DNA from: an uncultured Gammaproteobacteria bacterium
Lineage (GTDB): Bacteria; Patescibacteriota; Microgenomatia; PFEM01; JAPLYW01
Length of the DNA stretch: 64,000 bases
Assembly: GCA_965230945.1 (NCBI GenBank)
Contig: OZ246397.1
Span: 539,925 to 603,924, forward strand
Reading direction: 5' to 3'
Positions 3,988 to 62,514 of this stretch are shown piece after piece (position 1 is the first letter of the stretch; each line of letters opens with the position of its first letter). The position numbers and the translations under genes are program-made. The notes under the pieces were generated by a model. The model saw nothing but the letters and a program-made list of their open reading frames with translations. It made no database searches and was not told the DNA's origin.

Positions 3988-4788
3988 ATGAAAGATAAGT
4001 GGTTTAAAAAGATAAGCTTTTTATTTTTAGCTTTGGTATTACTTTCTTTTTTACTCTTTTGGTTTGATAAACAAAGTTGGATTTCTCCTCTTTTTGCTTT
4101 AATTAGAAAACCCATTAATAAGACGGAGGAAAGCTTCTTTAATTCTTATAGATATTTTTCTTCTTTTTTTTCTTTTTCAGGCAGAAAAGCTAGTGAAAAA
4201 AAGATTATTAATCTTGAGGGTAAATTACATTATCTGGCTTTAGATCAGAATGAATTGACTTCCTGCTTAGAAGAGAATAAAAGAATAAAAAGATTATTGG
4301 GGGCTTCTTTGCCTATTAAATGGAAATTTATGGAAGCCAAGGTTATTGGTGTTTCAGAGAAAATGAAGATCGCCAGAGGTAAAAGGGATGGCCTGGAAGA
4401 GGGAGTAAATGTTATTTCTGAAGATGTTTTGGTGGGCAAGGTAGTTTTCGTGGATGAAGATAGCAGTTTGGTACAATTGGTCAATGATCCTAGCTCTAAG
4501 ATTCCGGTGGTAGTTAAAAGGCCTAAGATGGCTGGTTTTCAAGCCAGAGGTCTTTTATTTGGGCAGTCAGGGAAGACCTTACTTTTAGATAGGGTACTGC
4601 AGGCAGAATTTATTCAGAAGGGGGACTTGGTAGTGAGTAGTGGCGATGAGGGTTGGTTACCAGATTTATTAATTGGGCAGATAGAAGAAGTTTCTCCCAA
4701 GTCAGCTGAGGTTTATCAAAAAGCGAGTGTTAGTCCCTTAGTTAATTATCGGGGTTTAAGTCTCGTTTTTCTTGTTGTCCGCCAATGA
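3988..4788 (+). CDS. mreC: Rod shape-determining protein MreC
   Basis: N-terminal TM, coiled-coil, C-terminal beta-rich domain; positioned between mreB and mreD. Confidence 0.8.
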   Translation: MKDKWFKKISFLFLALVLLSFLLFWFDKQSWISPLFALIRKPINKTEESFFNSYRYFSSFFSFSGRKASEKKIINLEGKLHYLALDQNELTSCLEENKRIKRLLGASLPIKWKFMEAKVIGVSEKMKIARGKRDGLEEGVNVISEDVLVGKVVFVDEDSSLVQLVNDPSSKIPVVVKRPKMAGFQARGLLFGQSGKTLLLDRVLQAEFIQKGDLVVSSGDEGWLPDLLIGQIEEVSPKSAEVYQKASVSPLVNYRGLSLVFLVVRQ

Positions 4789-5219
4789 AAGCTTATTTAA
4801 TTTTATTACCAGTTTTTTTTCTAGCTCTTTTACAGGGGTCCTTTTTAGGCTTTAATTTGGTTCTTTTGCTGGTTTTGTTTTATGTAGTTTTAAAGCAGAA
4901 TAGACAGAGTTTATGGGTAGCTTTTTGGTCTGGCTTAATTTTGGATTTGGCCAAAGGTCATTACTTAGGGCTTTCTGCCTTGATCTTTTTGTTTTTTAGT
5001 TTCTTGTTGATTTTATATTTCCGTCGCTTTCAGGCAACTAATTGGCTTTTTTTGGTAATTTTTGTGGCTCTTTTTTCTGGTGCTTATTCTCTTTTGGTTT
5101 ATCGCTTTTTTGATTGGAAAGAAGTTTTGTTTTTAATTATTTTGGCTCTTTTAGTACGCTTCATCTTAAGATTTTTCTCTATAGAATTGGCAACTAAACA
5201 GATAAGATTAAGGAATTAA
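4785..5219 (+). CDS. mreD: Rod shape-determining protein MreD
   Basis: 144 aa polytopic membrane protein; start overlaps the mreC stop (ATGA); precedes PBP2. Confidence 0.7.
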   Translation: MKAYLILLPVFFLALLQGSFLGFNLVLLLVLFYVVLKQNRQSLWVAFWSGLILDLAKGHYLGLSALIFLFFSFLLILYFRRFQATNWLFLVIFVALFSGAYSLLVYRFFDWKEVLFLIILALLVRFILRFFSIELATKQIRLRN

Positions 5220-6854: not shown

Positions 6855-7725
6855 AAAGAAATATTGGTTAGGTTTTAGTGCCTTTGCGGGTATTGGTCCT
6901 AAGAAGTTCTTTCTTCTTAGAGATTATTTTGGCTCTGCTAAAAAAGCTTGGCTGGCTTCTTCTTTTGAGTTATTAAAGGCTGGCTTAGGTCAAAATCTGC
7001 TGACGAGTTTTGTTGAATTTAGAAAAAAACTAGATTTAGATTCGTATTTTCTTCGTCTGCGTGAAAACGGGATAGAGTGCCAAACACTAGAAGATAAAAA
7101 TTATCCAGAAAACTTAAAAAATATTGATAATCCGCCCTTTCTGTTATTTGTGAAAGGAAATTTAAAGACCAATGATAAATGGGCGATAGCTGTTGTTGGC
7201 TCAAGAAGGATGTCTAATTATGGAGAGTTGGTTACTAAAAAATTAGTTAAGGATTTGGTCGGTTTTAATTTAACCATTGTTTCTGGTCTAGCGCGGGGTA
7301 TTGATACCATGGCTCATAAAACGGCTTTAAGATTTAAAGGAAGAACGATTGCCGTTTTGCCTTGTGGTTTAGATATGGTTTATCCGCCGGAAAACAAAAA
7401 CTTGGTTAAGCAAATTATTGATAAGGGAGGAGCCGTGGTTTCTGAATATCCACCTGGTTTTCGAGTTTCAAGAGGTAATTTCCCAGCCCGCAATCGCATT
7501 GTTTCCGGACTGTCTTTAGGGGCTTTAATTATTGAAGGAGCAGAAAGGTCAGGTTCTTTAATTACCGCTCGTTTGGCAGGTGAGCAAGGCAGGGAAGTTT
7601 TTGCCGTTCCCGGTCAAGTTACTTCCAAAAACTCCTTTACGCCTTCTTTGCTTATTAAGATGGGGGCTAAGTTGGTTTGGGATGTTAATGATATACTGGA
7701 AGAATTAAATCTTAAAAAAAGATAA
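6844..7725 (+). CDS. dprA: DNA processing protein DprA (Smf)
   Basis: Rossmann-like DprA core (VVGSRRMSNYG, SGLARGIDTMAH, LPCGLDMVYPPEN, GSLITAR). Confidence 0.85.
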   Translation: MKDEKKYWLGFSAFAGIGPKKFFLLRDYFGSAKKAWLASSFELLKAGLGQNLLTSFVEFRKKLDLDSYFLRLRENGIECQTLEDKNYPENLKNIDNPPFLLFVKGNLKTNDKWAIAVVGSRRMSNYGELVTKKLVKDLVGFNLTIVSGLARGIDTMAHKTALRFKGRTIAVLPCGLDMVYPPENKNLVKQIIDKGGAVVSEYPPGFRVSRGNFPARNRIVSGLSLGALIIEGAERSGSLITARLAGEQGREVFAVPGQVTSKNSFTPSLLIKMGAKLVWDVNDILEELNLKKR

Positions 7726-7751: not shown

Positions 7752-9740
7752 ATGAAAAGTTTAATAATAGTTGAGTCGCCTACTAAATCGAAAACCCTAT
7801 CTTCCTTTCTGGGAAAGGATTACAAAGTTATTTCGACCATGGGCCATATCAGGGATTTGCCAAAAGAGAAACTTGGAATAGAGATTGTTAAGAAAGATAA
7901 TAAAAGCTATGATTTCTTGCCCCAATATACTCTTTTAGATAAGAAAAAAGAGACGATTAAAAAATTAAAACAAGAAACAGGTAAGGCTAAAAAAGTCTTT
8001 TTGGCTAGTGATTCGGATCGTGAAGGAGAATCAATTGCTTATCATGTGGCCGCCATTTGTTCTAAGAAAAAGGAAAAAGATCCTAAGTTCCTAAGAATTA
8101 CCTTTCATGAGATCACTAAATCCGCTATTCAAAAAGCCTTAGCCAATCCGGGGAAAATTAATCTTCAGCTGGTTGATGCTCAACAGGCGAGAAGGCTCCT
8201 TGATAGGCTGGTCGGTTACAGACTTTCACCTCTTTTATGGCGCAAGATAAGAAGAGGTTTATCGGCCGGGAGGGTGCAGTCAGTGACCGTGCGTTTGATT
8301 GTTGAAAGAGAAAGGGAAAGAGAAAAGTTTATCCCAGAAGAGTATTGGGATATATTAGCTTATCTTCGTAAGCATATTGGTGGTCAAAAAGAAGGGGCAT
8401 CTACTTTTTACGCTAAGCTATTAAAAAAGAATAACAAGCCTTTTAAAGTTGAAAAAGAGGTACAGGCAGAAGAGGTTGTTAAGGACTTGCAAAAGGCTAA
8501 TTATGAGGTAGGCGATGTTGAAAGAAAAGAGGTTTTTCAAAATCCACCACCTCCTTTTACGACTTCTACCTTACAACAGATTGCCTCTCGTCGTTTAGCT
8601 TTTTCAGGGAAAAGAACGATGCGCGCCGCCCAATCGTTGTATGAAAAAGGTCTTATTACTTATCATCGAACCGATTCTTTTAGTCTTTCTTTACAGGCAG
8701 TAGGAGAGATAAGAAATTATATAGAAAAAGAAAAAGGGAAAAATTATCTTCCCGAAAAGCCAAGAATTTACAAGACAAAGTCTAAGGTCGCCCAAGAAGC
8801 TCATGAGGCCATCAGACAGACGAATGTTAATCGTCAAATTGAGGAAAAGAAAATAGGGAGAGATGAACAAAGGCTTTATAAATTAATTTGGCAGAGAACA
8901 GTCGCTTCGCAAATGAAATCAGCTATTTGGGATCAGGCAAAAATTAACATTCAGGCGATCAGTCAAAAAGATCTTTATGGTCTTTTAGTTGAAGGCAAGG
9001 TGATGAAATTTGATGGTTGGTTTTCTCTTTATGAATTCAAAGATAAGGAAGAAGAACTCCCTGATCTTAAAAAGGGTGATGATTTAGATTTAATTGAAAT
9101 TAAGAGCGAGCAGAAATTTACCCAGCCACCGGCAAGATATACAGAGGCAAGTTTAACTAAGGCCTTAGAGGAAAGGGGGATTGGCAGGCCTTCAACCTAT
9201 GTTCCCATTATTTCTACCATTCAAACAAGGCAGTATGTCGAGAAAGAAGAAGGTAAATTTAAACCAACACCATTGGGTGAAGTGGTTAATGACTTTCTAA
9301 TTGAATATTTCCCCCAAACCTTTGATTATCAATTTACGGCCAAAATGGAAGATGAACTTGATGATATTGCTAATGGTAAAAGAGAATGGATTTCGGTGAT
9401 GAATGATTTTTACAAACCTTTTGAAGAAAAACTGGAGGCTGTGACAGAGGTAGCTGAAAGAGTTCAAGTGCCTACAGAAGTAACAGGGGAAGATTGCCCT
9501 GAATGTAAAAAAGGCCAGTTGGTTATAAGAGTTGGTCGCTTTGGAAAGTTTATATCTTGTTCTAGGTTTCCTGATTGTAAATATACCGCTCCTTTTGTGC
9601 AAACAGTAGAAGGGATTAAATGCCCTAAGTGTGGTGGAGAAGTGGTTGTCAAGAAGACTAAAAAGGGTAAACAGTTTTACGGTTGTTCTAATTATCCAAA
9701 ATGTAATTGGGCTTCCTGGAAAAAACCAAAAACAGCTTGA
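7752..9740 (+). CDS. topA: DNA topoisomerase I with C-terminal zinc ribbons
   Basis: TOPRIM N-terminus (IIVESPTK), catalytic Tyr region (YHRTDS), three C4 Zn ribbons at the C-terminus; TGA stop. Confidence 0.9.
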   Translation: MKSLIIVESPTKSKTLSSFLGKDYKVISTMGHIRDLPKEKLGIEIVKKDNKSYDFLPQYTLLDKKKETIKKLKQETGKAKKVFLASDSDREGESIAYHVAAICSKKKEKDPKFLRITFHEITKSAIQKALANPGKINLQLVDAQQARRLLDRLVGYRLSPLLWRKIRRGLSAGRVQSVTVRLIVEREREREKFIPEEYWDILAYLRKHIGGQKEGASTFYAKLLKKNNKPFKVEKEVQAEEVVKDLQKANYEVGDVERKEVFQNPPPPFTTSTLQQIASRRLAFSGKRTMRAAQSLYEKGLITYHRTDSFSLSLQAVGEIRNYIEKEKGKNYLPEKPRIYKTKSKVAQEAHEAIRQTNVNRQIEEKKIGRDEQRLYKLIWQRTVASQMKSAIWDQAKINIQAISQKDLYGLLVEGKVMKFDGWFSLYEFKDKEEELPDLKKGDDLDLIEIKSEQKFTQPPARYTEASLTKALEERGIGRPSTYVPIISTIQTRQYVEKEEGKFKPTPLGEVVNDFLIEYFPQTFDYQFTAKMEDELDDIANGKREWISVMNDFYKPFEEKLEAVTEVAERVQVPTEVTGEDCPECKKGQLVIRVGRFGKFISCSRFPDCKYTAPFVQTVEGIKCPKCGGEVVVKKTKKGKQFYGCSNYPKCNWASWKKPKTA

Positions 9741-11717: not shown

Positions 11718-13097
11718 TTATTTTATTTTCTTAAGATTGAGGACCTTTAGAGATTTAGTGGATATTTTTGAAGGTGCTCCCATTAGTAAATCACGGCCTT
11801 CACCTGTTTTCGGAAAAGCAATTACCTCTCTGATATTTGTTTCGCCACATAGTACAGTAGCAAGACGATCGAAACCAAACGCTATTCCTCCATGTGGCGG
11901 TGGTGAAAATTTAAAGGCTTCGAGCATGTGTCCAAATCTGTTTTGCACTTCGCTCTCTGGTAAACCAAGAATCTCAAAAACTTTATGTTGTAAAACTCCA
12001 TCCGATATTCTTATGCTTCCTCCGGCAATTTCGTACCCATTCAAAACTAAATCGTAACCTAAGGCCTTTATTTTTAATAATTCTTTTTCGGGTTTGTTAA
12101 GATCCTCAACGCTTTTAATTTTCGGTTTAGTAAAAGGATGGTGTACAGCTGAAATTTTATTCTCTGTTGGGCCAATTTCAAACATTGGAGAATCTACTAC
12201 CCAACAAAAAGCCAACTCGTTGGGGTCATTGGGATTTTTTCGCGTATCAGGCTTGTCTGTATTGTATTTTTTCATAACGTAATCATAGGTATAAATTGGG
12301 AATTTACCAGCTGGAAGTTTTAAATAGGGGGTAACCTTTCTTATTACAGAAGAAACGGCTGTTTCAGCTAAATTCATAATGTCATCCTGTTCACAAAAAG
12401 ACATTTCAATATCGATCTGGGTAAATTCTGGTTGACGATCTTTTCGCAAATCTTCATCTCTGAAACACCTGGCTAGTTGGTAATATCGTTCTATTCCTGC
12501 TACCATCAAAAGTTGTTTAAATTGTTGAGGAGACTGAGGAAGAACGTATCCTTCGCCTGGATATAAACGGGATGGTACTATATACTCTCTAGCACCCTCG
12601 GGCGTTCCTTTTGTCAAAGCGGGCGTTTCAATTTCTATAAATCCATTTTCATCAAAGAAATTTCTAAAAGCGCTGGCCAGTTTGGCTCTCGTAATGATAT
12701 TTTTACGCATACGTTCAGTTCTTAAATCCAAATAACGGTACTTTAATCGCAATGACTCATCTACAGTTGAAGTGTTTTCATTTACATTAAAGGGAAGTGG
12801 AGCACATTTTGAGATAATCTTTATTGCTTCCGCTACTAATTCAATTTTTCCGAGTTCCTGCTCGGGGTTCACCGTTTGGGATGACCTTTTTTTAATGACC
12901 CCCTTTACCAAAATAAGATCCTCAAGCCCATAGTCCTGTACTAACAAATCTTTACCCAACACAACCTGGATACGTGCTGTCCGGTCGTATAAATCAATAA
13001 ATCCAACTTTAGAATGTTTTCTAAAACGGGAGATCCATCCTAGAGCTTTAACTTCTTTGCCAATATGAGTTTTCAGAGTTAAAATATCGATTTTCAT
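11718..13097 (-). CDS. aspS: Aspartyl-tRNA synthetase, short form (459 aa, no GAD insertion)
   Basis: N-terminal OB anticodon-binding domain, class II motif 2 FRDEDLRKDRQPEFTQIDIE, motif 3 GGIAFGFDRL. Confidence 0.85.
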   Translation of the reverse strand: MKIDILTLKTHIGKEVKALGWISRFRKHSKVGFIDLYDRTARIQVVLGKDLLVQDYGLEDLILVKGVIKKRSSQTVNPEQELGKIELVAEAIKIISKCAPLPFNVNENTSTVDESLRLKYRYLDLRTERMRKNIITRAKLASAFRNFFDENGFIEIETPALTKGTPEGAREYIVPSRLYPGEGYVLPQSPQQFKQLLMVAGIERYYQLARCFRDEDLRKDRQPEFTQIDIEMSFCEQDDIMNLAETAVSSVIRKVTPYLKLPAGKFPIYTYDYVMKKYNTDKPDTRKNPNDPNELAFCWVVDSPMFEIGPTENKISAVHHPFTKPKIKSVEDLNKPEKELLKIKALGYDLVLNGYEIAGGSIRISDGVLQHKVFEILGLPESEVQNRFGHMLEAFKFSPPPHGGIAFGFDRLATVLCGETNIREVIAFPKTGEGRDLLMGAPSKISTKSLKVLNLKKIK

Positions 13098-13102
13098 AGG
13101 AT

Positions 13103-15094
13103 TTAAGGTATTATGTCATATTCTGACCTCGGAAACAAAAAGAGGTCGCTTAAACTTCTTAAGTTAAGTAGTTTAACTAGAAATCTGTCGATACTCAAAC
13201 AGAAACCTCCATGTGGCCTTGGATTTTGAAACGCGTTCAAATAGAATTGATATTTCTTGTGTTTTAATCCTGTTCCTTTTATGCCCTTCAGAAGTTTTTC
13301 GTAATCAGTTTCACGAATAGCCCCCGATGCTATTTCCCAACCTTTATAAATAACATCGAAGCTTAATGTTTTATCCTCCCTATCATGCTTTACATAAAAC
13401 TTTTTTACAGAGCTGGGATATTTTATTATTGCGAACAAATCAGTTTTGTACTTATCTTTGACAATCTTACCAAGCATTTCCTCAAGATCATATCCAAAAT
13501 CTATCCCGTAAGCGACTTTCCCACTTGTGCCTTTGCTATTTAGAAGGCTAAGGGCATCTTCGTAGGTAATTGTTTTTATGGTCTTATTAACTACTTGAGA
13601 TTTTGATATTTCCTTATTTTCATATAGTTTTTTTGTAATCACATTCAATAGAGTTCCCAATAAAGCAATCAGTTGATTTAAATTTTCAACATTAGCCATT
13701 TCTATATCTAAGCCATATGCTTCGGATAAATGCCTAGGAGTTGGGTTTAGTTCTGCTCTCCAAAAAGGACCTAGCTCAAAAAGTTTGTCTATGCCAGAAA
13801 GTATTAAGATCTGTTTATATAATTGGTTTGATTGCCTTAAAAGCATTTTTCTTCCGTACCAATTTACTGTAAAAATTTCCTCGTCTGGATTGTCTCGTAC
13901 GGGGTCAGTTGACACTGCAGTTATTGTGGGAGTATGAATTTCAACAAAACCGAGATATAAAAGTGTCTTTCGAGTAATAAAATAGGCATCACTTTTAAGT
14001 TTAATATTTGGGATTTTGGATTTATAAATTTCGCTATTGATACGAAAGTTTTCGCGTCTGGCATTTTCTTTTAAACTATAGATCATAGCATCCACAGCTT
14101 TTGTTACAGATGTTGAGATAATATCTTTTGCTATAGAGATACTATTTTGCCTTAATTTCTTATTGTATTGTGAATATTCATTTATTGATTTTAGATCATA
14201 AATTTCGTAAAGATTTTTGACTAAAAGAGTATTTTGCGGTGTCCCTAAATCGTATATGAGACAGTATTTGATAGTGCTCAAAAAATCTAGTTGTTCTTTT
14301 TTGAATACATTCGGTGTGGCGAAAAAGATGATGATAGGTTTTACTTTCAAGTTTTTGATGGTATTTAGTCGAACTGCCTTCTTGGCTATTTTATCCTTGA
14401 CTAGTTTTTTTGCTTTATTAATAGTTCTATTTGCTATAACTAGATTTTTATACCCTTTTTCGTTGAGGACTTTACATAACAAACTCCCTGTCGAGCCAGC
14501 ACCAACAATTAGAATGTATGCATCTTGGGGAATCGATCTTTTAATCATCATATCTACGGCTGTTCTTTCCGCAGAGACATTTCCTTTACCAATGTCTGTT
14601 GCATTTCTAACAGCATTTGAGACCTTTCTCGCATTGTTAAAGATTGTTTTTAAAACGATTCCGGCCGTTTTATCATCCGAGGCAATACTTATCGCTTGAC
14701 GTACTTGACCCGTAACCTGATTATCTCCTAAAGTTACACTTTTAAGTCCGCAGGCGGTTTCAAATAAATGCTCAATTACCTTTTTGCCAGAATATTGACA
14801 GATATCGGATATCTTGAAGGAGTTTGGTTTTTGAGATTGCTTCTTCCATAAATTCGTTATTCCGTCCTTATTATCTTCCGCAGCCACATAGTAGATTTCC
14901 ACACAATTGCATTTACTTAGAATTACGCATTCATCCAATCGATATTCATTCTGGAGTTCTTTCGCAAAAGACCGGTGATTTTTAATTAAGTAGGTTTGTA
15001 AAGATTGAAGGTCTCCTGTACCCATTAATGCAGAAAGACAGTGAATCTTTTCTAGTATGTTTTTTGTAATTTTATTTTGGAGCACTAGTGGCAA
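13103..15094 (-). CDS. Fusion protein: glutamyl-tRNA-reductase (HemA)-like catalytic plus NADPH domain (about aa 1-330) joined to an Asp/Asn-tRNA-synthetase-type class IIb catalytic core (about aa 370-663). No anticodon-binding domain.
   Basis: N-terminal half aligns to GluTR by eye: ILSKCNCVEIY (TCNRTE active-site Cys, codon 14909-14911), LKSVTLGDNQVTGQVRQA, ARKVSNAVRNATDIGKGNVS, ILIVGAGSTGSLLCKVLNEKGYKNLVIANRT. C-terminal half carries class IIb aaRS motifs: QSNQLYKQ, FWRAELNPTPRHLSEAYGLDIEMA (motif 2), PHGGFCLSIDRF...LFLFPR (motif 3). TTG start at 15094, first ATG at codon 24. Confidence 0.8.
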   Translation of the reverse strand: MPLVLQNKITKNILEKIHCLSALMGTGDLQSLQTYLIKNHRSFAKELQNEYRLDECVILSKCNCVEIYYVAAEDNKDGITNLWKKQSQKPNSFKISDICQYSGKKVIEHLFETACGLKSVTLGDNQVTGQVRQAISIASDDKTAGIVLKTIFNNARKVSNAVRNATDIGKGNVSAERTAVDMMIKRSIPQDAYILIVGAGSTGSLLCKVLNEKGYKNLVIANRTINKAKKLVKDKIAKKAVRLNTIKNLKVKPIIIFFATPNVFKKEQLDFLSTIKYCLIYDLGTPQNTLLVKNLYEIYDLKSINEYSQYNKKLRQNSISIAKDIISTSVTKAVDAMIYSLKENARRENFRINSEIYKSKIPNIKLKSDAYFITRKTLLYLGFVEIHTPTITAVSTDPVRDNPDEEIFTVNWYGRKMLLRQSNQLYKQILILSGIDKLFELGPFWRAELNPTPRHLSEAYGLDIEMANVENLNQLIALLGTLLNVITKKLYENKEISKSQVVNKTIKTITYEDALSLLNSKGTSGKVAYGIDFGYDLEEMLGKIVKDKYKTDLFAIIKYPSSVKKFYVKHDREDKTLSFDVIYKGWEIASGAIRETDYEKLLKGIKGTGLKHKKYQFYLNAFQNPRPHGGFCLSIDRFLVKLLNLRSLSDLFLFPRSEYDIIP

Positions 15095-24025: not shown

Positions 24026-24883
24026 TTGAAGTTTAAATTTTTTATGAAAAGAATTGTTATTCATATTAATCCAGATTTGGATGCTGTTGCTTCAGTTTGG
24101 CTTATCAAAAGATTTTTGCCTCGTTGGGAAAAAGCAGAAATAGGTTTCTGTCAGGCAGAAACAACTTTTGATGGGAAGCCAGTAGATAGTGATCCTGATA
24201 TTTTACATCTTGATGTTGGTTTAGGTAAACTTGATCATCATCAAACTGATTGTTTTACTTCGGCAGTTAAACTCACTTTAGATTTCATCTTAGAAAAAAG
24301 AAAAGGACAAGAGTTGAGCCCTTTAGATTTAGAGGCTTTAGAGCTCATGGTAGAAACGATTAATGAAATTGATAATGCGCGAGATTTGAATTGGCCGGAA
24401 GTTAAAAAAGAGCGTTATGATTTTTATCTCCATTCTATTTTAAGTGGTTTAAGAAGAATGGGGAAAACTGATATTGAACTAGTTGAATACGGTTTTTTAG
24501 GGCTAAATGCTGTTTTTAAGAATCTTAAAGCAGGGATAAAAGCCAAAGAAGAAATAAAAAAGGGGATTGAATTTCAGACTCCTTGGGGAAAGGCAATTGC
24601 CTTGGAGACCGGTAATGAATTATTTTTATGGGAAAGTGAAAAAGCTGGTTATTATTTAGTGGTTAAAAAGGATCCTGACGATGGTGATGTTAGAATTTAT
24701 GCTCGTTATGATAGTGATGTTGATTTGAAAAATGTTTATCAAAAATTTAAAGAGATGGATAAAGAATCTGATTGGTTTTTACACGCTTCCGGTAAGTTGT
24801 TATTAAATGGATCTCGGGTTAAAAAGATGAAACCAACAAAGTTAAGTTTAGAGCAAGTAATTGGGGTGTTGAAAAATGGTTGA
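24026..24883 (+). CDS. DHH-family phosphoesterase (NrnA-like nanoRNase/pAp phosphatase)
   Basis: IHINPDLDAVAS (motif I) and GKLDHHQTD (DHH motif). The likely ATG is at 24044; the track start at 24026 is a TTG. Confidence 0.6.
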   Translation: MKFKFFMKRIVIHINPDLDAVASVWLIKRFLPRWEKAEIGFCQAETTFDGKPVDSDPDILHLDVGLGKLDHHQTDCFTSAVKLTLDFILEKRKGQELSPLDLEALELMVETINEIDNARDLNWPEVKKERYDFYLHSILSGLRRMGKTDIELVEYGFLGLNAVFKNLKAGIKAKEEIKKGIEFQTPWGKAIALETGNELFLWESEKAGYYLVVKKDPDDGDVRIYARYDSDVDLKNVYQKFKEMDKESDWFLHASGKLLLNGSRVKKMKPTKLSLEQVIGVLKNG

Positions 24884-25199
24884 TTGTATTTTTTGTCAAA
24901 TTGCTCAAAAAAAGATACCAGCAGAGATTGTTTATGAAGATAAAAAGATCATTGCTTTTAATGATGTTAACCCTAAAGCACCTGTCCATATCTTAATTAT
25001 TCCTAAGAAACATATTAAAGATTTTATTAGTTCTGGAAAATTCTTTCCTAAGATTTTAAAAGTTGCTAAAGACTTAATTAAAAAGTATAATTTAGATAGG
25101 AATGGTTATAGATTAGTAGTCAATGGCAGGAGTGCAGCGCTTGTCGATCATTTACATTTACATCTTTTAGGAAAAATAACTGTTGATAGGAATGTTTAG
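24876..25199 (+). CDS. HIT-family (histidine triad) nucleotide hydrolase
   Basis: 107 aa; CIFCQI N-terminus; HLHLHLLG histidine triad at the C-terminus. Confidence 0.8.
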   Translation: MVDCIFCQIAQKKIPAEIVYEDKKIIAFNDVNPKAPVHILIIPKKHIKDFISSGKFFPKILKVAKDLIKKYNLDRNGYRLVVNGRSAALVDHLHLHLLGKITVDRNV

Positions 25200-25236
25200 G
25201 GGAAGTTATTCTAATAGGGTAAATTATTTTTAAGTA

Positions 25237-25307
25237 CGGGGCGTAGCTCAAAATAGAGCAGCGTACTTGGTGTACGATGTATAGTGGTTTAAATCCATTC
25301 GCCCCGA
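25237..25307 (+). tRNA. tRNA-Pro(UGG)-like element with atypical D- and T-loops, 36 nt upstream of the proS start; either a divergent tRNA or a tRNA-mimic operator
   Basis: Hand-folded cloverleaf. Acceptor CGGGGCG/CGCCCCG is 7/7 Watson-Crick. U8 A9. D-stem GCTC/GAGC with a 6-nt D-loop AAAATA (no G18G19). Anticodon stem GCGTA/TACGA. Loop CUUGGUG (U33, anticodon UGG, U at position 37). T-stem AGTGG/CCATT with loop TTTAAAT (no C56). Discriminator A; no encoded CCA. Confidence 0.45.
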
Positions 25308-25343
25308 CAAATTTAAAGAGATTAAGAAATAATATGATTTTCT

Positions 25344-26792
25344 ATGAATGAAAAAGAGAAGGTTAATTTTTCTTCTAAAGAATTAGGAGTTAAGGTGGAA
25401 TCAGATAAAATTTCTGAGTGGTATAATAAAATAATTAAAGAGGCTGATTTGATTGATCAAGGCCCAGCTAAAGGGACGATGGTTTTTCGTCCTTATGGTT
25501 ATGCTCTTTGGAAAGGAGTTCAAAAGAGTCTTGGGTTTAAAATAGAAAAGAATGGGGTTGAAGATGCTTATTTTCCTGCTATAATTCCAGAAAAACTTCT
25601 AGTTAAAGAAAAAGATCATATTGAAGGTTTTTCTCCGGAATTTTTACGTGTTCGAGGTAGAAGTGGAGAAATTGGAGTATTGAGGCCAACTTCCGAAGCT
25701 GTAATGTATCCATTATTTAAGAAGTGGATTCAATCTTACAGAGATTTACCCCTTAAAGTAAACCAGTGGTGTAATGTTTTTAGAGATGAGTTAAGAACGT
25801 ATGCTTTAATACGCACTTCTGAATTTCTTTGGCAGGAGGGTCATTGCGTGTATGCTTCAGCAAAGGAAAACGAAGAAGCAGTGATGGATTTTTTAAATAT
25901 GTATAAGAATTTTTTTCGTAATACTCTTGCTGTATCTCCTATTTTTGGGAAAAAAAGCGAAAAGGAAAAATTTGCAGGAGCTTTATATACTACAACTGGC
26001 GAAGCAGTTTTACCAGGAGGGAAAGCTCTTCAAGTTTGTACTTCTCATAATTTAGGGACAAATTTTGCAGAAGCCTTTGATATACAATTTTTAGGTAAAG
26101 ATGGCAAACAACATCACCCATATCAGACAAGTTGGGGTTTAAGCTGGCGGGTTATTGCCGCGATGATTATGAGTCACGGTGATAAAAAAGGGCTTATTTT
26201 TCCACCAGAAATGGCCCCTACGCAAGTAATAATTATACCTATTAAAGGTTCATCTGATGAAGTAGTTATGGAAGCAGCAAAATCTATAAAAGAAAGATTG
26301 TCTGATTTGAGAGTTGATATAGATAAGTCAGATGCAAGGCCAGGAGCTCGTTATAATTATTATGAACTTAGAGGAGTACCTTTAAGGATTGAAATTGGCG
26401 CCCGTGATATTCATAATAATCAGATAATAGTTGCAAATCGATTAACTGGTGATAAAAAAGCTCTGCCTTTAGGTGGTCAGCTTAGAAAAGGCATACAGTT
26501 GTCATTAACATCAATACAAGAGTCTTTATTAAAGAAATCTGAAAGTTTAGTTAAAGAAAGTACCAAAGATGTAAAGACATGGGAAGAATTTAAAGAGATT
26601 CTTAATAAAAATGGAGGTTTTCTGAGAACTTATCACTGTGGAAATAGAGATTGTGAACAACAAATTCAGGATGAAACAAAAGCAACATTAAGATGTATCC
26701 CTTTCGGTTATGAAAAATCAGAGGGAAAATGTGTTAGATGCGGAAAACCATCTAATTATGGTCAAAAAGTACTTTTTGCTAAGGCCTATTAG
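25344..26792 (+). CDS. proS: Prolyl-tRNA synthetase, archaeal/eukaryal-type (class IIa) with a C-terminal zinc-binding domain
   Basis: Motif 1 region FRPYGYALW, motif 2 FRDELRTYALIRTSEF, motif 3 GLSWRVIAAMIMSHGDKKG, anticodon-binding domain, C-terminal CGNRDC...CVRCGK. Confidence 0.85.
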   Translation: MNEKEKVNFSSKELGVKVESDKISEWYNKIIKEADLIDQGPAKGTMVFRPYGYALWKGVQKSLGFKIEKNGVEDAYFPAIIPEKLLVKEKDHIEGFSPEFLRVRGRSGEIGVLRPTSEAVMYPLFKKWIQSYRDLPLKVNQWCNVFRDELRTYALIRTSEFLWQEGHCVYASAKENEEAVMDFLNMYKNFFRNTLAVSPIFGKKSEKEKFAGALYTTTGEAVLPGGKALQVCTSHNLGTNFAEAFDIQFLGKDGKQHHPYQTSWGLSWRVIAAMIMSHGDKKGLIFPPEMAPTQVIIIPIKGSSDEVVMEAAKSIKERLSDLRVDIDKSDARPGARYNYYELRGVPLRIEIGARDIHNNQIIVANRLTGDKKALPLGGQLRKGIQLSLTSIQESLLKKSESLVKESTKDVKTWEEFKEILNKNGGFLRTYHCGNRDCEQQIQDETKATLRCIPFGYEKSEGKCVRCGKPSNYGQKVLFAKAY

Positions 26793-26800
26793 TATTTTCT

Positions 26801-27571
26801 ATGTTTATGGAATGTAGTAGTAAATTAACATTGTCAAATATTCCTTCCGATTATCCACTTCCTAACCTTTATTATTTCTCTTCCAAATTTTTAACAGAAA
26901 TTCGTAAACAGGTGACAGGTGCTGTTTCAATTTTAAATCAAAATGGTTTTGAAGAATGTCATTTCCCTTTTTTAGTTCCGAGAAGCCTTTTATTGTATTA
27001 TAAGAACTTAATATCTTTGGAAGATTTTATAAAAGTATATTCAGGGAAAGATAAGCGATCATATGCTTATTTGAGACCAGATGGTGTGTTTAGTCAAGGG
27101 ATCACTTTAGCAAAAGAAATGATTAAGAGTTATCGTAATTTACCCTTGAAATTATTCGAAGTATCCCCAAGCTATAAAAGATTAAAGAACAAAACCAAAG
27201 GGAATGTCTTTACTTCTCCAGAAGAGTCTTTTTCTATACAAGGTGGAGTATTTATTGAGGATAAAGACGAAAATGAATTTCTTCAGACGATTATTTCTAG
27301 AATTCTAAATAACTTCTCAATACCGTATATAGCCAAAAATAATAAATTATGTAAATATGGGGGAATAAATTATAGCACTCTTTTTAGTGACAATGAGATA
27401 AATCTCGCTAAAATTTGTGTTTTTGATCAAGAAGTTACTCGGGAAGCAAACATTTATTTTTTTAATAAAGAGGGAAGGAGATCTTTTCCATACATGTATA
27501 GCTTTAGCTTATCTCAAAACATTTTTTTAATTAGTCTTTTAAAAAATGAAAGAATAGGATTAGAAAAGTGA
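26801..27571 (+). CDS. ProRS-like paralog truncated to the N-terminal catalytic region (256 aa); no anticodon-binding or Zn domain
   Basis: YAYLRPDGVFSQGITLAKEMIKSYRNLPLKLFEVSPSYK parallels the proS segment [37 protein letters not shown]; very AT-rich. Confidence 0.55.
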   Translation: MFMECSSKLTLSNIPSDYPLPNLYYFSSKFLTEIRKQVTGAVSILNQNGFEECHFPFLVPRSLLLYYKNLISLEDFIKVYSGKDKRSYAYLRPDGVFSQGITLAKEMIKSYRNLPLKLFEVSPSYKRLKNKTKGNVFTSPEESFSIQGGVFIEDKDENEFLQTIISRILNNFSIPYIAKNNKLCKYGGINYSTLFSDNEINLAKICVFDQEVTREANIYFFNKEGRRSFPYMYSFSLSQNIFLISLLKNERIGLEK

Positions 27572-28995
27572 ATAACATATCAGAAGAGAAATTGATAGAT
27601 TGGCTGAAGTTTTATGTTAACTTTGGTGATATAGTAAATGATGATTTTCCTACTAAAGGAGCTTGTTCTTGGTACCCTTATGGATATTCTTTAATGAAGA
27701 ATATCCTTCATTTAGCATCAAATATTTTAATTAAGAAAGCTAAGTTTAAAGAGATTGTTTTACCATCTTTTGTTCATGGTGAAGATTTCATGAAAGAATG
27801 CAAAAATATAAAAGATTTTAGTGAACGTGTATATTGGTCGCCATTATATAGAAAAGACGATCTACATGTAGTAACTCCTACAATTGAAGCACAGTTAGGT
27901 GCTCTTTATAATAAATGGCTACAAGCAAATAAAAAACTTCCGTTTAAGTATTTTACGATAAGGGGAGTAGGTCGTTATGAAACTGGAAGGACAATTCCTT
28001 TATGGAAGGAACGTAACGTTTGGCCTTTTTTTGAAGGGTTAACGGTTCATAGTTCTTCATCTGATTTTTTAGCTACCATAAAACAACAAATAAATTTTAT
28101 GGAAGTTTTTTTTGAAGAACTTGGAATTCCTGTTTTAATCCTTGAAAGACCTAAGATTAATTCTCGTTTGTGTGAATATTCTGAGCGAAGAATAGAAGCT
28201 GTTACGATAACTAAAGATAAGAGGGTTGTAATACTAGCAAATATATATGATTTAGGAGAAATATTTAGTAGAGTATACGATATCTTTTATATCGTTAAGA
28301 ATACTAAATATTATGCCTTAACTTCTGCGATAGGTTTATCTGGTAGGGTGTTGGCTACCTTGTTGACTATAAATGGCGATAAAGATGGTTTTATTCTTTC
28401 TCCAATGATTGCTCCAATTAAGTTAGCGATATTACCAATTTATAATAAACCAGCTTTTACTAAGCTAGCAAAAAAGATAGAAGTTTATTTAAGTAAAAAA
28501 GGTATAGTTTCAAAGAATTTTCCGGCTGTGTCTTCGTTGGGAGAGAGGAGAAGAAAAGTAACAGCAATGGGGATACCTTTTTTAATAGAGATTGGATCAA
28601 ATGAAATAAAAAGCTCGTCAGTATTAATAAAAGAACGTGTTCTTACTCATAATTCTACAGAATGTGAAATAAAAGAAATACCTTATATTATTAAGAAACG
28701 AGGCAAAATAATGAATAAGTTTATTAAGCAGAAAGCATTTAAAGAATTCAATTTACTTACTAAGTCTGTTAAGTTAAAGAAAAATTTTCTTTATTGCCTT
28801 AAAGATGAGATTTTAACAGAATCATTTTTTTGTAATAATCCAAATTGTTATAATAAAATGGCAGAATTGTCAAATAGAGAAATAATTGGTCGTAATTATA
28901 AAGCTAAAATAAATAAAAAATCTAAATGTATAGTTTGTGGAAAAACAGCATCTCAAGGTATTTATTTTGGTATTAAATGGAAGGGAGAAAAGTGA
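27568..28995 (+). CDS. Full-length divergent ProRS-family paralog (475 aa: catalytic, anticodon-binding and Zn-ribbon domains)
   Basis: PTKGACSWYPYGYSLMK, VTPTIEAQLGALYNKWLQANKKLPFKYFTIRGVGRYETGR (motif 2 altered), GLSGRVLATLLTINGDKDG (motif 3), SPMIAPIKLAILPI, C-terminal CNNPNC...CIVCGK. Confidence 0.6.
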   Translation: MNNISEEKLIDWLKFYVNFGDIVNDDFPTKGACSWYPYGYSLMKNILHLASNILIKKAKFKEIVLPSFVHGEDFMKECKNIKDFSERVYWSPLYRKDDLHVVTPTIEAQLGALYNKWLQANKKLPFKYFTIRGVGRYETGRTIPLWKERNVWPFFEGLTVHSSSSDFLATIKQQINFMEVFFEELGIPVLILERPKINSRLCEYSERRIEAVTITKDKRVVILANIYDLGEIFSRVYDIFYIVKNTKYYALTSAIGLSGRVLATLLTINGDKDGFILSPMIAPIKLAILPIYNKPAFTKLAKKIEVYLSKKGIVSKNFPAVSSLGERRRKVTAMGIPFLIEIGSNEIKSSSVLIKERVLTHNSTECEIKEIPYIIKKRGKIMNKFIKQKAFKEFNLLTKSVKLKKNFLYCLKDEILTESFFCNNPNCYNKMAELSNREIIGRNYKAKINKKSKCIVCGKTASQGIYFGIKWKGEK

Positions 28996-28997
28996 TT

Positions 28998-29912
28998 ATG
29001 GATTTTTTAAAAAAGGGAGACACTATTGGGGTGGTTGCTCCTGGCTCGCCAGTGCCTAAAAAAAATATAAAAAAGGGAGTTAATGTTCTTAGTAATATGG
29101 GCTTTAATGTAAAATTAGGTAAGCATATTTTTAGTATTACTGGCTATACGGCAGGAATTGCAAAAGATCGTGCTAATGATATTAATAGGTTTTTTTCTGA
29201 TTCTCAGATTAAAGCGATAATTGCTGCTCGTGGTGGTTATAATTGCAATCAGATCTTACCATTTTTAGATTATGGACTTATTAAAAAAAACCCAAAGATT
29301 TTCTTAGGTCTTAGTGATGTAACTGCAGTGTTAAATGCTATTGTTTTGAAATCGAATGTTATAACATTTCATGGCCCAGTTCTTTTAATGATAGGGGGTG
29401 GAAGAGATGGTAAAGTATTCTCTAAGTATTCCAAAGAAAATTTTGAAAAAATACTTATGAATGAAAAGAAAAGGTTTATTAATGTAGTTAATGCCTTTGA
29501 TAATTGGATTGTTTTAAATAAAGGAAAAGCTGTAGGCAAACTTTTTGGCGGGAACCTCTCTTCTTTAATAAGTATTATTGGTACATCATATGAACCAAAT
29601 TGGAAAAATGCGATTCTAATGTGGGAAACGCTGGAAGAAAAATTAGAAATGATAGATCAGATGTTAACACATCTGAGATTAGCTGGAATTTTTGATAAAA
29701 TTAATGGTATGATGGTAGGTAAGTTTGTTGATACTAAACAGGGAAGAGATACAGAGATTATTAAAATGATTTTAGAACAATGCAGGGGATATGATTTTCC
29801 GATAATTTATGGGGTTGATTTTGGCCATACTAACGAAAATTTAATATTACCTATAGGTGGGGAAATTAGTTTTAATACAGAAGAAGAATTTCTTAAGATT
29901 ATTAAATATTAA
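28998..29912 (+). CDS. Peptidase S66 family (LD-carboxypeptidase LdcA / microcin-C immunity MccF-like serine hydrolase)
   Basis: IGVVAPGSPV, nucleophile motif LGLSDVTAV, C-terminal GVDFGHT...PIGGE His motif. An alternative ATG at 28977 overlaps the upstream stop. Confidence 0.7.
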   Translation: MDFLKKGDTIGVVAPGSPVPKKNIKKGVNVLSNMGFNVKLGKHIFSITGYTAGIAKDRANDINRFFSDSQIKAIIAARGGYNCNQILPFLDYGLIKKNPKIFLGLSDVTAVLNAIVLKSNVITFHGPVLLMIGGGRDGKVFSKYSKENFEKILMNEKKRFINVVNAFDNWIVLNKGKAVGKLFGGNLSSLISIIGTSYEPNWKNAILMWETLEEKLEMIDQMLTHLRLAGIFDKINGMMVGKFVDTKQGRDTEIIKMILEQCRGYDFPIIYGVDFGHTNENLILPIGGEISFNTEEEFLKIIKY

Positions 29913-29923
29913 ATTAGAAATTT

Positions 29924-31057
29924 ATGGGGCCTTATCAGGCGAAGCCAGGCGGTGTTATTTCTTATTTAGGCAATAAGATTTATCCTCCAGTTGAGGATGT
30001 ATTAGCTGTTTCTTGGCCACCAAAAGATTTAGTAGACAGAGTTGGATCTATTTATCGAGATAAGAAGTGGTACCACCTGCATAAAATTGATGCCTCAATT
30101 TTTACTGCTACGACACAATTCTTCCAAAGTATAAATGCTGATTGGGTTAATCTACCTCTTACCACTATGATGATTTCTTCTCCTGGTGAAGTTTATGCTG
30201 GACAAAGACTAAATTACACAACAGATACTTTACCTATGGAAATTCCTAATTGGTTTCATACTGGTAATAGAGTGTTTCTTTCAGAATCTTCACAGTTTTA
30301 TCTAGAATTAAGATTAATAATTGATAAGCTGGATAAAGTTTTTTCGATTTATAATTCTTTTAGGAAGGAAAAAGCTGATGCTACTCATTTATCAGAATTC
30401 CAACATGTTGAGTTTGAAGGACATGTTAATTTCAAAAATAACATAAATACTTTTATCAATTTGATTAATTATATTTTAAATTTTCTTTTACAAAATAACG
30501 AAGATAATTTATCTTTTTTTCTTGAAGATCAAGATATAAATGAATTATCTCGAAGCATGAAAAAGATTTTTAAGGTTCCGTTTGTCGAAATTTTAAAAGT
30601 TCTTTTTAAGGAAACTGGAAATAATAAATATAAAGAATTTTCAATGAAGAATTTTGGGTCGTGGGAAGAAATTTTTATTACTCAGATTTACGGCGGTAAT
30701 GTGTTAGCTCTTAATTTCCCTATGTTGCAGATCCCTTTTTATCATGAAATAAGTAAGAAAAAAGTTGGGGGTGTTCCTGTAGCTGAAAATGCAGATTTAA
30801 TACTTCAAGGATATAGAGAAACTGTTGGGAGTGGATTAAGAATTACAGATCCAAAGGCTTTGGCAGAAAAAGCAAAAATTTTTAATCTACCTATAGATGA
30901 CTATAAACCTTACCTTGAGACACGTAAGATGAAGAAATATAAAACATCGGCTGGTTTCGGTTTAGGTTGGCAAAGATTTACGCAATGGATTTTAAAATTA
31001 CCATATATTTGGGAAACAACCCCAACTCCTCGTGGACACACAAAACCAAGGCTTTAA
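29924..31057 (+). CDS. Standalone class IIb aaRS catalytic core (AsnA / AsnRS-AspRS-like); no anticodon-binding domain
   Basis: Motif 2 FSIYNSFRKEKADATHLSEFQHVEFE, motif 3 SAGFGLGWQRF, C-terminal IWETTPTPR (compare AsnRS IRDVIPFPR). Confidence 0.6.
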   Translation: MGPYQAKPGGVISYLGNKIYPPVEDVLAVSWPPKDLVDRVGSIYRDKKWYHLHKIDASIFTATTQFFQSINADWVNLPLTTMMISSPGEVYAGQRLNYTTDTLPMEIPNWFHTGNRVFLSESSQFYLELRLIIDKLDKVFSIYNSFRKEKADATHLSEFQHVEFEGHVNFKNNINTFINLINYILNFLLQNNEDNLSFFLEDQDINELSRSMKKIFKVPFVEILKVLFKETGNNKYKEFSMKNFGSWEEIFITQIYGGNVLALNFPMLQIPFYHEISKKKVGGVPVAENADLILQGYRETVGSGLRITDPKALAEKAKIFNLPIDDYKPYLETRKMKKYKTSAGFGLGWQRFTQWILKLPYIWETTPTPRGHTKPRL

Positions 31058-49303: not shown

Positions 49304-49390
49304 TGCCGTGGGTCGGAGTCGAACCGACACGAGCTTTAAAGGCTCACAGGTTTTTGAGACCTGCGCGTCTACCAGTTCCGCCACCACGGC
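49304..49390 (-). tRNA. tRNA-Leu (anticodon CAA), class II with a long variable arm
   Basis: RC gives GCCGTGG-TG-GCGG-AACTGGTAGA-CGC-G-CAGGT-CTCAAAA-ACCTG-TGAGCCTTTAAAGCTCG-TGTCGG-TTCGACT-CCGAC-CCACGGC-A; canonical GG in the D-loop and TTCGA in the T-loop; no encoded CCA. Confidence 0.8.
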
Positions 49391-61521: not shown

Positions 61522-62514
61522 TTGCCTTTACTCTTACAATGTCGTACAATATTTTTAATGCCCGAAGAGAAGAAAGAAACTAAGCGTACTGAAGTTGATC
61601 GTCTCATTGAAGAGTTCTTAGAGTACCTCGAGATTGAAAAGAATTCCTCTCCCCTAACCGTTCGTAACTACAAACATTATCTTACTCGCTTTTCTGAATG
61701 GCTAAAGAAGGATCACTCCAAGCCTGACTCAGGTTCAATTACTTTAGAGGTTGTTAAAAAATATAGGGTATATTTATCCCGATTTACAGCCCTAAATGGG
61801 GCGCCTTTATCCCGTGTCACTCAAGGCTACCATGTGATAGCTTTAAGGGCATTCCTGCGCTGGTTAATAAAAAATGACTATAAGACACTTAGCCCAGAGA
61901 AGATTGACCTCCCCAAAGCTAAAAGCCGCTCTCTAAAGTTTCTTACTACAGAGCAGGTAGAGCGTCTTTTGTCTCAACCCCAGATATCAAAGCCGAGAGG
62001 GCTACGTGATAAGGCCATCTTAGAGATGCTCTTCTCTACTGGCTTGCGGGTCAGTGAATTAGTGAGGCTTAATCGGGATCAAATTGACTTTAATCGTCGA
62101 GAGTTTGGTGTTATTGGTAAAGGAGGTCAAGCTCGGGTGGTATTTCTCTCAAAAGAGGCCGCAGAATGGCTTAAAAAGTACCTTGAGAGCCGAACCGATG
62201 CTTGGAAGGCCTTGTTTGTAAGATATATAGAAAAACCGGAGGTTATCGAGAGTGGTCAGAAGATGAGATTAACTGTCAGAACGATACAACGGATCGTTAA
62301 AAAGTATGTAAGGAAAGCAAGACTACCTGTAGATGCCAGTGTTCATACACTCCGTCATTCTTTTGCCACTGATTTACTTATGGCCGGGGCTGATATTAGA
62401 AGTGTCCAAGAACTTCTTGGTCATAAAAACATTTCGACCACTCAAATCTATACTCACGTCACCAATAAAAAACTTAGAGATGTTCATGAAGCCTTTCATG
62501 GTAAAGGGAAATGA
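61522..62514 (+). CDS. xerC: Tyrosine site-specific recombinase, XerC/XerD type
   Basis: N-terminal SAM-like core-binding domain (EEFLEYLEIEKNSSPLTVRNYKHYL); catalytic R (GLRVSEL), HTLRHSFAT, LLGH, Y in IYTHV. The likely ATG is at 61561. Confidence 0.8.
   Translation: MPLLLQCRTIFLMPEEKKETKRTEVDRLIEEFLEYLEIEKNSSPLTVRNYKHYLTRFSEWLKKDHSKPDSGSITLEVVKKYRVYLSRFTALNGAPLSRVTQGYHVIALRAFLRWLIKNDYKTLSPEKIDLPKAKSRSLKFLTTEQVERLLSQPQISKPRGLRDKAILEMLFSTGLRVSELVRLNRDQIDFNRREFGVIGKGGQARVVFLSKEAAEWLKKYLESRTDAWKALFVRYIEKPEVIESGQKMRLTVRTIQRIVKKYVRKARLPVDASVHTLRHSFATDLLMAGADIRSVQELLGHKNISTTQIYTHVTNKKLRDVHEAFHGKGK

Follow-up and report, generated by a model that had tools for sequence, protein, structure and literature searches.

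What is the tRNA-shaped sequence that lies directly in front of the prolyl-tRNA synthetase (ProRS) gene proS on contig OZ246397.1 (assembly GCA_965230945.1)? The window analysed here is a stretch of 64,000 nucleotides of this contig (positions 539,925 to 603,924, forward strand), and window coordinates are counted from its first letter. An initial annotation had described an atypical tRNA-Pro(UGG)-like structure in the proS leader and offered three readings: a functional tRNA-Pro co-transcribed with its synthetases and possibly dedicated to a paralog, a tRNA-mimic operator, or a decayed tRNA left at an integration site. Our analyses indicate that the element is almost certainly a real tRNA-type gene maintained by selection. 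Across three gene arrangements, it follows a pair of small and large ProRS-like paralogs rather than the canonical proS gene.

The span originally given to the structure, 25200-25343, is the whole intergenic region, and the RNA proper occupies positions 25237-25307. Its parts, and the spacer that follows it, are:

25237-25307, + strand: non-canonical tRNA-Pro(UGG)-type gene, 71 nt through the discriminator A73, identified by its RF00005 match, fold and covariation
25250-25255, + strand: D-loop AAAAUA, 6 nt, without any G; its third base (25252) is the proposed partner of U56 in the T-loop
25266-25272, + strand: anticodon loop CUUGGUG (C32 U33 U34 G35 G36 U37 G38), with the anticodon UGG at 25268-25270
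25288-25294, + strand: T-loop UUUAAAU, with U instead of C at position 56, from the sequence and the alignment
25308-25343, + strand: spacer between the tRNA and proS, 36 nt, without a terminator-like hairpin

The acceptor stem pairs CGGGGCG (25237-25243) with CGCCCCG (25300-25306) over all 7 bp, and is followed by U8 A9 and a 4-bp D-stem (GCUC/GAGC). The anticodon arm (GCGUA/UACGA) combines a G27.A43 mismatch, which is found throughout the window's clade, with four pairs. A variable loop of 5 nt leads to the T-arm AGUGG-UUUAAAU-CCAUU, with its 5-bp stem. The discriminator A73 stands at 25307 and the next letters are CAA, so that CCA is not encoded in the window copy. The structure first described was thus confirmed in its details, including the 71-nt UGG cloverleaf with perfect 7-bp acceptor, U8, 4-bp D-stem and 5-bp T-stem, a D-loop AAAAUA without G18-G19, a T-loop UUUAAAU without C56, a pyrimidine at position 37 (U37), the missing CCA, and an end 36 nt before the proS ATG (25344) on the same strand. 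Other anticodon registers, such as a GGU anticodon or the G.A mismatch read as 26-44, were discarded, as they would break covarying pairs or the standard spacing.

The Rfam tRNA model RF00005 matched the element with 46.2 bits over model positions 1-71, well above the gathering threshold of 29, when permissive filters were used. The corresponding E-value was 6e-9 for the local stretch and, with the same filters, 1e-6 for the whole window; a window scan with default filters missed the element. Thermodynamic folding was consistent with this match: both the minimum free energy and the centroid structures predicted by ViennaRNA were the cloverleaf (-28.5 kcal/mol, z = -3.8), none of 200 shuffled sequences was as stable, and the cloverleaf stayed a separate domain when folded with 188 nt of context. 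The family covariance model R1 scored the window tRNA at 99.6 bits. Confirmation by ARAGORN, which had been proposed as a check, was mixed. The window copy was not called, and neither was that of L094 (L numbers designate the loci compared here), yet tRNA-Pro was called in eight related lineages (L085, L088, L089, L090, L092, L093, L096 and L097), with tRNA-Pro(UGG) returned in six of the seven relatives from the window's clade that carry the gene cassette described below. Rfam scans at default or moderately strict filters also miss the copies of L096 (7222-7295) and L097 (2645-2718). Such tRNA genes are probably under-annotated in metagenomic genomes, being missed by standard finders and filtered Rfam scans.

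ARAGORN and the permissive Rfam scan revealed no further tRNA-Pro in the 64-kb window, whose second tRNA is an ordinary tRNA-Leu(CAA) (49304-49390). A T-box or another known leader RNA was considered and rejected: the tRNA is the sole Rfam match at the element, and the T-box model gave no match at E-values up to 10 on positions 25100-25450, nor at E-values up to 0.1 across the window. Elsewhere, a weak match to the SurA small RNA family was found inside the topoisomerase I gene (8962-9224, - strand; 27 bits against a threshold of 100, E = 0.002), and is most likely due to chance.

Comparison across lineages also indicated that the structure is under selection. In an alignment of nine sequences, 93.9% of the cells at paired positions were paired and six pairs had changed on both sides. 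When two sequences with an AGG anticodon from more distant lineages were added, for a total of 11 lineages, these values rose to 94.8% and nine compensatory pairs, spread over all four stems. Nine double-change pairs were reached in only 1 of 500 column shuffles, and sliding the 3' partners by 1-3 columns left 0-1 of them. The canonical elbow (G18 G19 with U55 C56) is absent from the window tRNA. The third D-loop base and T-loop position 56 (alignment columns 16 and 54) were found as GC in seven sequences, GU in one (L085) and AU in one (the window), which suggests that a 19-56 elbow pair has been kept by covariation. As these two bases change together, the initial description of the tRNA as elbow-less is probably wrong.

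The genes surrounding the element in the window are:

24876-25199, + strand: HIT/HinT-family gene, directly 5' of the tRNA, from domain search and synteny
25344-26792, + strand: canonical archaeal/eukaryote-type ProRS (proS), 482 aa (TIGR00408, 526 bits against a cut-off of 437; Pfam)
26801-27571, + strand: small ProRS-core-like protein, 256 aa, without the motif 2 and motif 3 arginines; likely a non-catalytic partner subunit
27568-28995, + strand: large ProRS-like paralog, 475 aa (208 bits with TIGR00408, short of the 437 cut-off), with core, anticodon-binding and Zn domains
28977-29912, + strand: S66 LD-carboxypeptidase/MccF-family hydrolase, from domain search; a cassette member in the window's clade
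29924-31057, + strand: AsnRS/asparagine-synthetase-A-like class II core without anticodon domain, 377 aa; a cassette member in the window's clade

The five genes 3' of the tRNA are on the same strand and tightly packed. The ProRS encoded in the window is present on metagenomic contigs and on a contig of 615 kb, and belongs to a clade of about 20 ProRS sequences with identities of 66-82%. The next relatives, at 49% identity, include Portnoybacteria and Uhrbacteria, which points to a host resembling members of the Candidate Phyla Radiation (CPR). Genomic context was taken for eight further lineages of this clade (L085/L086, L087, L088, L089, L090/L091, L092, L093 and L094). All of them except L087 carry proS followed by the small and large paralogs, and this order is kept even where the 5' genes differ; the S66 and AsnRS-like genes are found in all of these seven lineages with the exception of L093. 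The tRNA occurs directly 5' of proS in all seven cassette-bearing relatives, the window being the eighth case, with a spacing of 33-53 nt between the tRNA and the first open reading frame (ORF).

The remaining lineage, L087, has no cassette after proS, and its tRNA copy (6916-6989) displays three A.C mismatches (2-71, 6-67 and 51-63). This copy does not fold into a cloverleaf (z = -0.49) and scored 63 bits, compared with 90-101 for the others. Each mismatch would be cured by a single C-to-U change, a pattern compatible with decay or, less likely, with editing.

The association of the tRNA with proS is not a general feature of archaeal-type ProRS loci. Scanning metagenomes with the ProRS alignment yielded one close locus (L005) and 79 distant ones, which were used as a background set. 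None of the 80 archaeal-type loci from other organisms in this background (41-46% identity) had a tRNA-Pro near proS, and the adjacency therefore appears specific to this clade. A ProRS scan of species-representative genomes returned one unrelated Clostridia locus only, and viral contigs contained no match to the tRNA pattern or to the paralog. L005 also carries, 5' of proS in an AT-rich contig, an 870-nt GC-rich non-coding stretch (4054-4920) without any Rfam or tRNA-model match.

The large paralog belongs to a rare family, with about 30 matches among 5.8 billion clustered proteins. A HMMER profile search of 1.84 billion representatives found about six large-paralog clusters above 350 bits and a handful of more distant ones that match through a family-specific C-terminus; below these, scores fall in the range of ordinary ProRS. 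A second group of paralogs, 40-46% identical and with one member named Woesebacteria by its source, provided three more genomic contexts. L096 (GCA_043812555.1) encodes a tRNA-Pro(AGG) of the same architecture, which ends 2 nt ahead of the small-paralog ATG, with the large paralog next in line; proS does not occur in the 8 kb of this locus that lie upstream, and the large paralog is followed almost at once by the end of the contig. In L097-L101, an AGG tRNA likewise lies 2 nt before the small-paralog ATG and is followed by the large paralog; the canonical proS and the HIT gene are convergent, on the opposite strand. L095 has a different cloverleaf, 5 nt before the small-paralog ATG, characterized by a canonical D-loop with GG, the canonical T-loop UUCAAUU, U1-A72 and A73, and by an anticodon arm that can be drawn with a loop of 6 nt or, alternatively, as a 7-bp stem capped by a UGCC tetraloop.

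The junctions between discriminator and ATG were located at 7292-7297 in L096, 2715-2720 in L097 and 4062-4070 in L095, and an encoded CCA overlaps the ATG in L096. The small-paralog start codons are credible, since the N-termini align across all lineages. With only 2 nt available in L096 and L097, and 5 nt in L095, there is no room for a Shine-Dalgarno sequence, and 3' processing of the tRNA would thus yield a near-leaderless mRNA. Wherever it is present, the tRNA-like gene stands first in the operon that encodes the two ProRS-like proteins, small and large; L005 is the exception.

Which parts of the RNA are constrained, and by what? Sequences from the 11 lineages share G72, A73, G35, G36, C32, U37, G38 and the D-loop frame A14, A15 ... 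A21, together with the stems, and C1 is kept in 10 of them. Variation occurs at position 34 (U or A), at position 33 (C in L089 and L094) and at T-loop positions 54 and 58, and CCA is encoded in L093 and L096. In bacterial-type (P-type) tRNA-Pro, experiments have defined G35, G36, G72 and A73 as identity elements, and these also serve an E-type ProRS adapted to such a tRNA (PMC11229370). This identity set is fully present in all 11 lineages.

The anticodon loop presents a different picture. G37 is the substrate of TrmD for m1G37 formation, and bacterial tRNA-Pro carry this base; here, every member has U37 instead. The canonical 7-nt loop with U33 and a purine at position 37 is not found either, owing to U37 in 11 of 11 lineages and to C33 in L089 and L094. 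Closure of the loop to 5 nt by a C32-G38 pair is predicted to be 4.5 kcal/mol more stable than the 7-nt form. A purine stands at position 37 in every one of about 15 other tRNAs from these loci, and C32-G38 occurs in none of them. In L008, an unrelated locus of the background set, a tRNA-Met(CAU) (4314-4388, - strand) shows C33 and a mismatched first acceptor pair and is initiator-like.

Such constraints agree better with selection for recognition, through the anticodon-binding domain of a ProRS-type enzyme, than with selection for decoding. The element is probably not the main decoder of CCN codons, since positions 33 and 34 are variable, a pyrimidine occupies position 37, the L095 counterpart is unable to decode and the L087 copy is degraded.

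The large paralog has the parts expected of an enzyme that binds such an RNA. It aligns with ProRS over its full length, including the ProRS-C_1 Zn domain, at 25% identity. Residues T116, E118, R147, E149, W163, E165, E220, S267 and R269 and the four Zn cysteines are invariant across canonical ProRS and the whole set of paralogs. Several positions that do not vary in the close ProRS clade are changed in the paralogs: H167 is replaced by L, F or A (it is H in one member), T233-S234-H235 by [N/S]-I-Y, and W264 by a non-aromatic residue. These swapped pocket residues are themselves conserved within the family, and the paralogs share their own strongly conserved motif 2 loop. They also lack the C-terminal Tyr that is highly conserved in E-type ProRS (PMC11229370), which is replaced by an extension ending in KWKGEK. 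These features point to an active, adenylate-forming and tRNA-binding enzyme with a remodelled amino-acid pocket. That the protein would bind tRNA is suggested by its retained anticodon-binding domain. Synthetase paralogs that gave up tRNA usually lose this domain.

The small protein lacks both catalytic arginines and is probably a non-catalytic dimer partner. Within the anticodon-binding domain of the large paralog, a motif reads S-L-G-E-R-R-R-K or T-[FY]-G-x-R-K-R-[KR] in the paralogs paired with NGG-U-G tRNAs, and S-F-K-K-K-I-S-K at the same site in L095, whose tRNA-like partner is without GG. This correspondence between protein motif and tRNA loop gives a weak hint of co-evolution.

The reading we favour, at about even confidence, is that the co-transcribed tRNA is the dedicated partner of the ProRS-like paralog and not the main decoder. 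It retains, on the strength of conservation and synteny, the part of the first proposal in which a functional tRNA-Pro is co-transcribed with synthetases and serves a paralog, without the elbow-less feature then attached to it.

The best-placed alternative is that the element is the ordinary, and possibly the only, tRNA-Pro(UGG) of these organisms, with lineage-specific oddities, sitting next to its synthetase and used in translation. All four CCN codons are used in the window (CCU 279, CCC 91, CCA 174 and CCG 73), which means that translation requires some tRNA-Pro; a single UGG isoacceptor can suffice in small low-GC genomes, and the 64-kb window offers no second tRNA-Pro. The score above the Rfam threshold and the complete bacterial tRNA-Pro identity set (PMC11229370) are in line with this view. 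So is the predicted affinity of about half the family for elongation factor Tu (EF-Tu), which equals the mean of bacterial tRNA-Pro(UGG) (-9.6 kcal/mol, standard deviation 0.54; PMC3239215).

On the other hand, an AGG anticodon in other lineages, the change of U33 to C in two of them and the 6-nt loop of L095 are unexpected for a housekeeping decoder, and no other tRNA sampled has a pyrimidine at position 37. The element also adjoins the paralog pair where canonical proS is on the other strand, a neighbouring tRNA-Pro is missing from all 80 ordinary proS loci, and the copy in the cassette-less L087 is degraded. We give this explanation a lower, yet still substantial, probability than the dedicated-partner reading.

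Several observations nonetheless weigh against a dedicated, non-decoding partner. A Watson-Crick-capable 32-38 pair does not alone exclude decoding, and the 19-56 covariation amounts to two substitutions in one sub-lineage. The argument that the degraded L087 copy probably speaks against a main CCN decoder rests on one lineage. In L005, proS is followed by ORFs of 250 and 481 aa at the paralog positions (a correspondence of size and position only), and no tRNA copy was found in 13 kb, even by unfiltered covariance-model scoring. Finally, EF-Tu binding was estimated with a three-pair T-stem model (49-65, 50-64 and 51-63), using the values of Table 2 in PMC3239215 and a base of -10.1 kcal/mol. 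The predictions were mixed, with -8.2 kcal/mol for the window, -8.1 for L089, L090 and L094, and -9.5 to -9.6 for the others, and avoidance of EF-Tu was dropped as a family-wide signature.

A second alternative regards the element as a cis-acting, tRNA-shaped leader, either repressing the first ORF when bound by ProRS or the paralog, in the manner of thrS, or providing an RNase P/Z signal for the production of a near-leaderless mRNA. Its constant position directly ahead of the leading ORF of the operon (at 33-53 nt in the clade of the window, 5 nt in L095, and 2 nt in both L096 and L097), the lack of a terminator before this ORF and the missing Shine-Dalgarno space in the 2-nt cases are all compatible with such a role. 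A mimic, however, needs no perfect 7-bp acceptor stem, A73, covarying T- and D-arms or encoded CCA, and compensatory changes were found in all four arms. The tRNA-mimic operator is thus less likely, because the whole tRNA is kept, including acceptor stem, A73 and T-arm. We regard a purely cis-acting function as improbable, and a leader role is compatible with the dedicated-partner reading rather than exclusive of it.

Least credible, and in our view next to impossible, is the decaying pseudogene or attachment-site remnant of a cassette insertion, for which the blank ARAGORN result in the window and the missing G18G19 and C56 might plead, since the element is conserved with compensatory pairs across ProRS that are 66-82% identical and paralogs that are about 40% identical, the window contains no second copy of the tRNA 3' half, no integrase is found near the tRNA (the nearest being Xer-like, 61522-62514), and the flanking genes are core housekeeping genes.

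How might a dedicated tRNA of this kind work? In the partner reading, it would be the first element of an operon transcript running into proS and the ProRS-like genes. Co-transcription is suggested by the lack of a terminator and, in three arrangements, by a gap between tRNA and ORF that is too short to hold a promoter. One more feature concerns the start of this transcript:

25183-25212, + strand: promoter-like sequence TTGATA-18-TATTCT, ending 24 nt before the tRNA, a consensus match only

Promoter-like sites precede the tRNA in most related loci, with a site count in the region that is near chance expectation. The tRNA would be excised through cleavage of its 5' end by RNase P and cleavage after A73 by a 3' endonuclease, and excision in L095, L096 and L097 would leave a near-leaderless mRNA. 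CCA would be added post-transcriptionally. The two-subunit paralog (small, 256 aa; large, 475 aa) would then charge the tRNA as its dedicated acceptor, recognizing it through the retained G35, G36, G72 and A73. The family-specific C32, U37 and G38 probably contribute, and could set the element apart from ordinary tRNA-Pro. With its constricted loop, the lack of a purine at position 37 and the freedom of positions 33 and 34, such a tRNA would probably not act as the main CCN decoder, and, once charged, it would probably supply a process distinct from the ordinary decoding of proline.

A more specific version of the dedicated-partner reading, which we put forward as tentative, is that CPR-like bacteria possess an orthogonal pair. 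In this scheme, a ProRS-derived ligase, heterodimeric and with its pocket remodelled, would load a non-proline residue, or proline and another one, on a private non-decoding acceptor for a non-ribosomal pathway. This acceptor would be cut from the mRNA of the enzyme itself, with the possible involvement of the S66, AsnRS-like and HIT proteins. A rarer variant would have a non-proline residue inserted at CCN codons. These three proteins are candidate partners, designated by synteny only.

Several other observations were made in and around these loci. The HIT/HinT gene adjoins the ProRS/paralog module in both UGG and AGG lineages despite rearrangements, as in the window, in L093 (6385-6786) and in L097 (4851-5258). 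In L093, the region directly 5' of the tRNA (235-2473) encodes a class V aminotransferase and a 343-aa class II protein with a weak tRNA-synt_2b-like match, so that one more synthetase-like gene adjoins the module in this lineage. PADLOC returned nothing but a generic HIT match for the cassette proteins, and an anti-phage defence system was ruled out on this basis. The window also contains a 663-aa ORF (13103-15094, - strand) in which a glutamyl-tRNA-reductase-like N-terminus, which comprises GlutR_N and NAD(P)-binding domains and scores 162 bits with the hemA model (cut-off 209), is fused to an archaeal-type AspRS catalytic core (237 bits; cut-off 353). In effect, the usual oligonucleotide-binding (OB) anticodon domain is swapped for a module acting on aminoacyl-tRNA. 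An ordinary bacterial AspRS gene adjoins this fusion ORF (11718-13097).

In a search of the literature, the module and its tRNA were not found described. Synthetase paralogs with a private tRNA are rare, and those known, such as PylRS, ProRSx and the cell-wall tRNA-Gly, revealed new coding rules or tRNA-dependent chemistry; private-tRNA pairs also gave orthogonal pairs useful for synthetic biology. The pair reported here is conserved in several uncultured small-genome lineages and combines the Pro identity set with a distinctive C32/U37/G38 loop, a changed pocket and an extra pseudo-subunit.

Individual features of this module can be recognized in several known systems. In Escherichia coli, the thrS operator mimics the anticodon arm only, immediately 5' of the synthetase ORF. 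A tRNA-like structure precedes a synthetase ORF in both cases, but here it is a complete cloverleaf with acceptor stem and T-arm. In the E. coli tufB operon and in mitochondrial tRNA punctuation, a tRNA heads the mRNA with no terminator and in places no spacer, so that tRNA excision would set the 5' end of the mRNA, as would be the case here; the tRNA described here differs in being cognate to, and apparently co-evolving with, the encoded enzymes. Encoded beside the PylRS gene, tRNA-Pyl combines a small D-loop with the absence of G18G19 and of the canonical T-loop; it decodes a stop codon and keeps a normal 7-nt loop. PylRS and tRNA-Pyl are likewise a dedicated synthetase-tRNA pair, from which the present case differs by its sense Pro anticodon and by an anticodon loop able to close to 5 nt.

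The non-proteinogenic tRNA-Gly of Staphylococcus, which lack G18G19, are donors for the pentaglycine bridge (PMC4574755, PMC3239215). They offer a parallel as extra isoacceptors that miss G18G19, keep the cognate anticodon and are used outside translation. However, their charging depends on the single normal GlyRS instead of a paralog, their binding to EF-Tu is uniformly weak, in contrast to the mixed prediction obtained here, and they are linked to Fem transferases, none of which was seen here.

The closest known system is ProRSx/tRNA-ProX of Streptomyces and Kitasatospora, in which a ProRS paralog has its own tRNA-Pro-derived partner (tRNA-ProA, -ProT or -ProN; PMC10404621, PMC9437257). Both systems place a diverged ProRS paralog beside its own tRNA-Pro-like tRNA, with apparent co-evolution and a rare, patchy distribution. 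The ProRSx paralog derives from bacterial-type ProRS, while the present one is of the archaeal/eukaryote type, with a C-terminal Zn domain and an additional small core-like subunit. In the ProRSx system, the anticodon has become that of Ala, Thr or Asn (AGC, AGU or AUU) and the tRNA decodes, which results in mistranslation; here, NGG (UGG or AGG) is kept, and positions 32, 37 and 38 and the loops are altered. The hosts are Actinomycetes in the one case and CPR-like bacteria in the other, and the amino-acid pocket is changed here. The locus would thus present a synthetase paralog with a private non-canonical tRNA that differs from ProRSx in the origin of the paralog, the small subunit, the NGG loop and the host.

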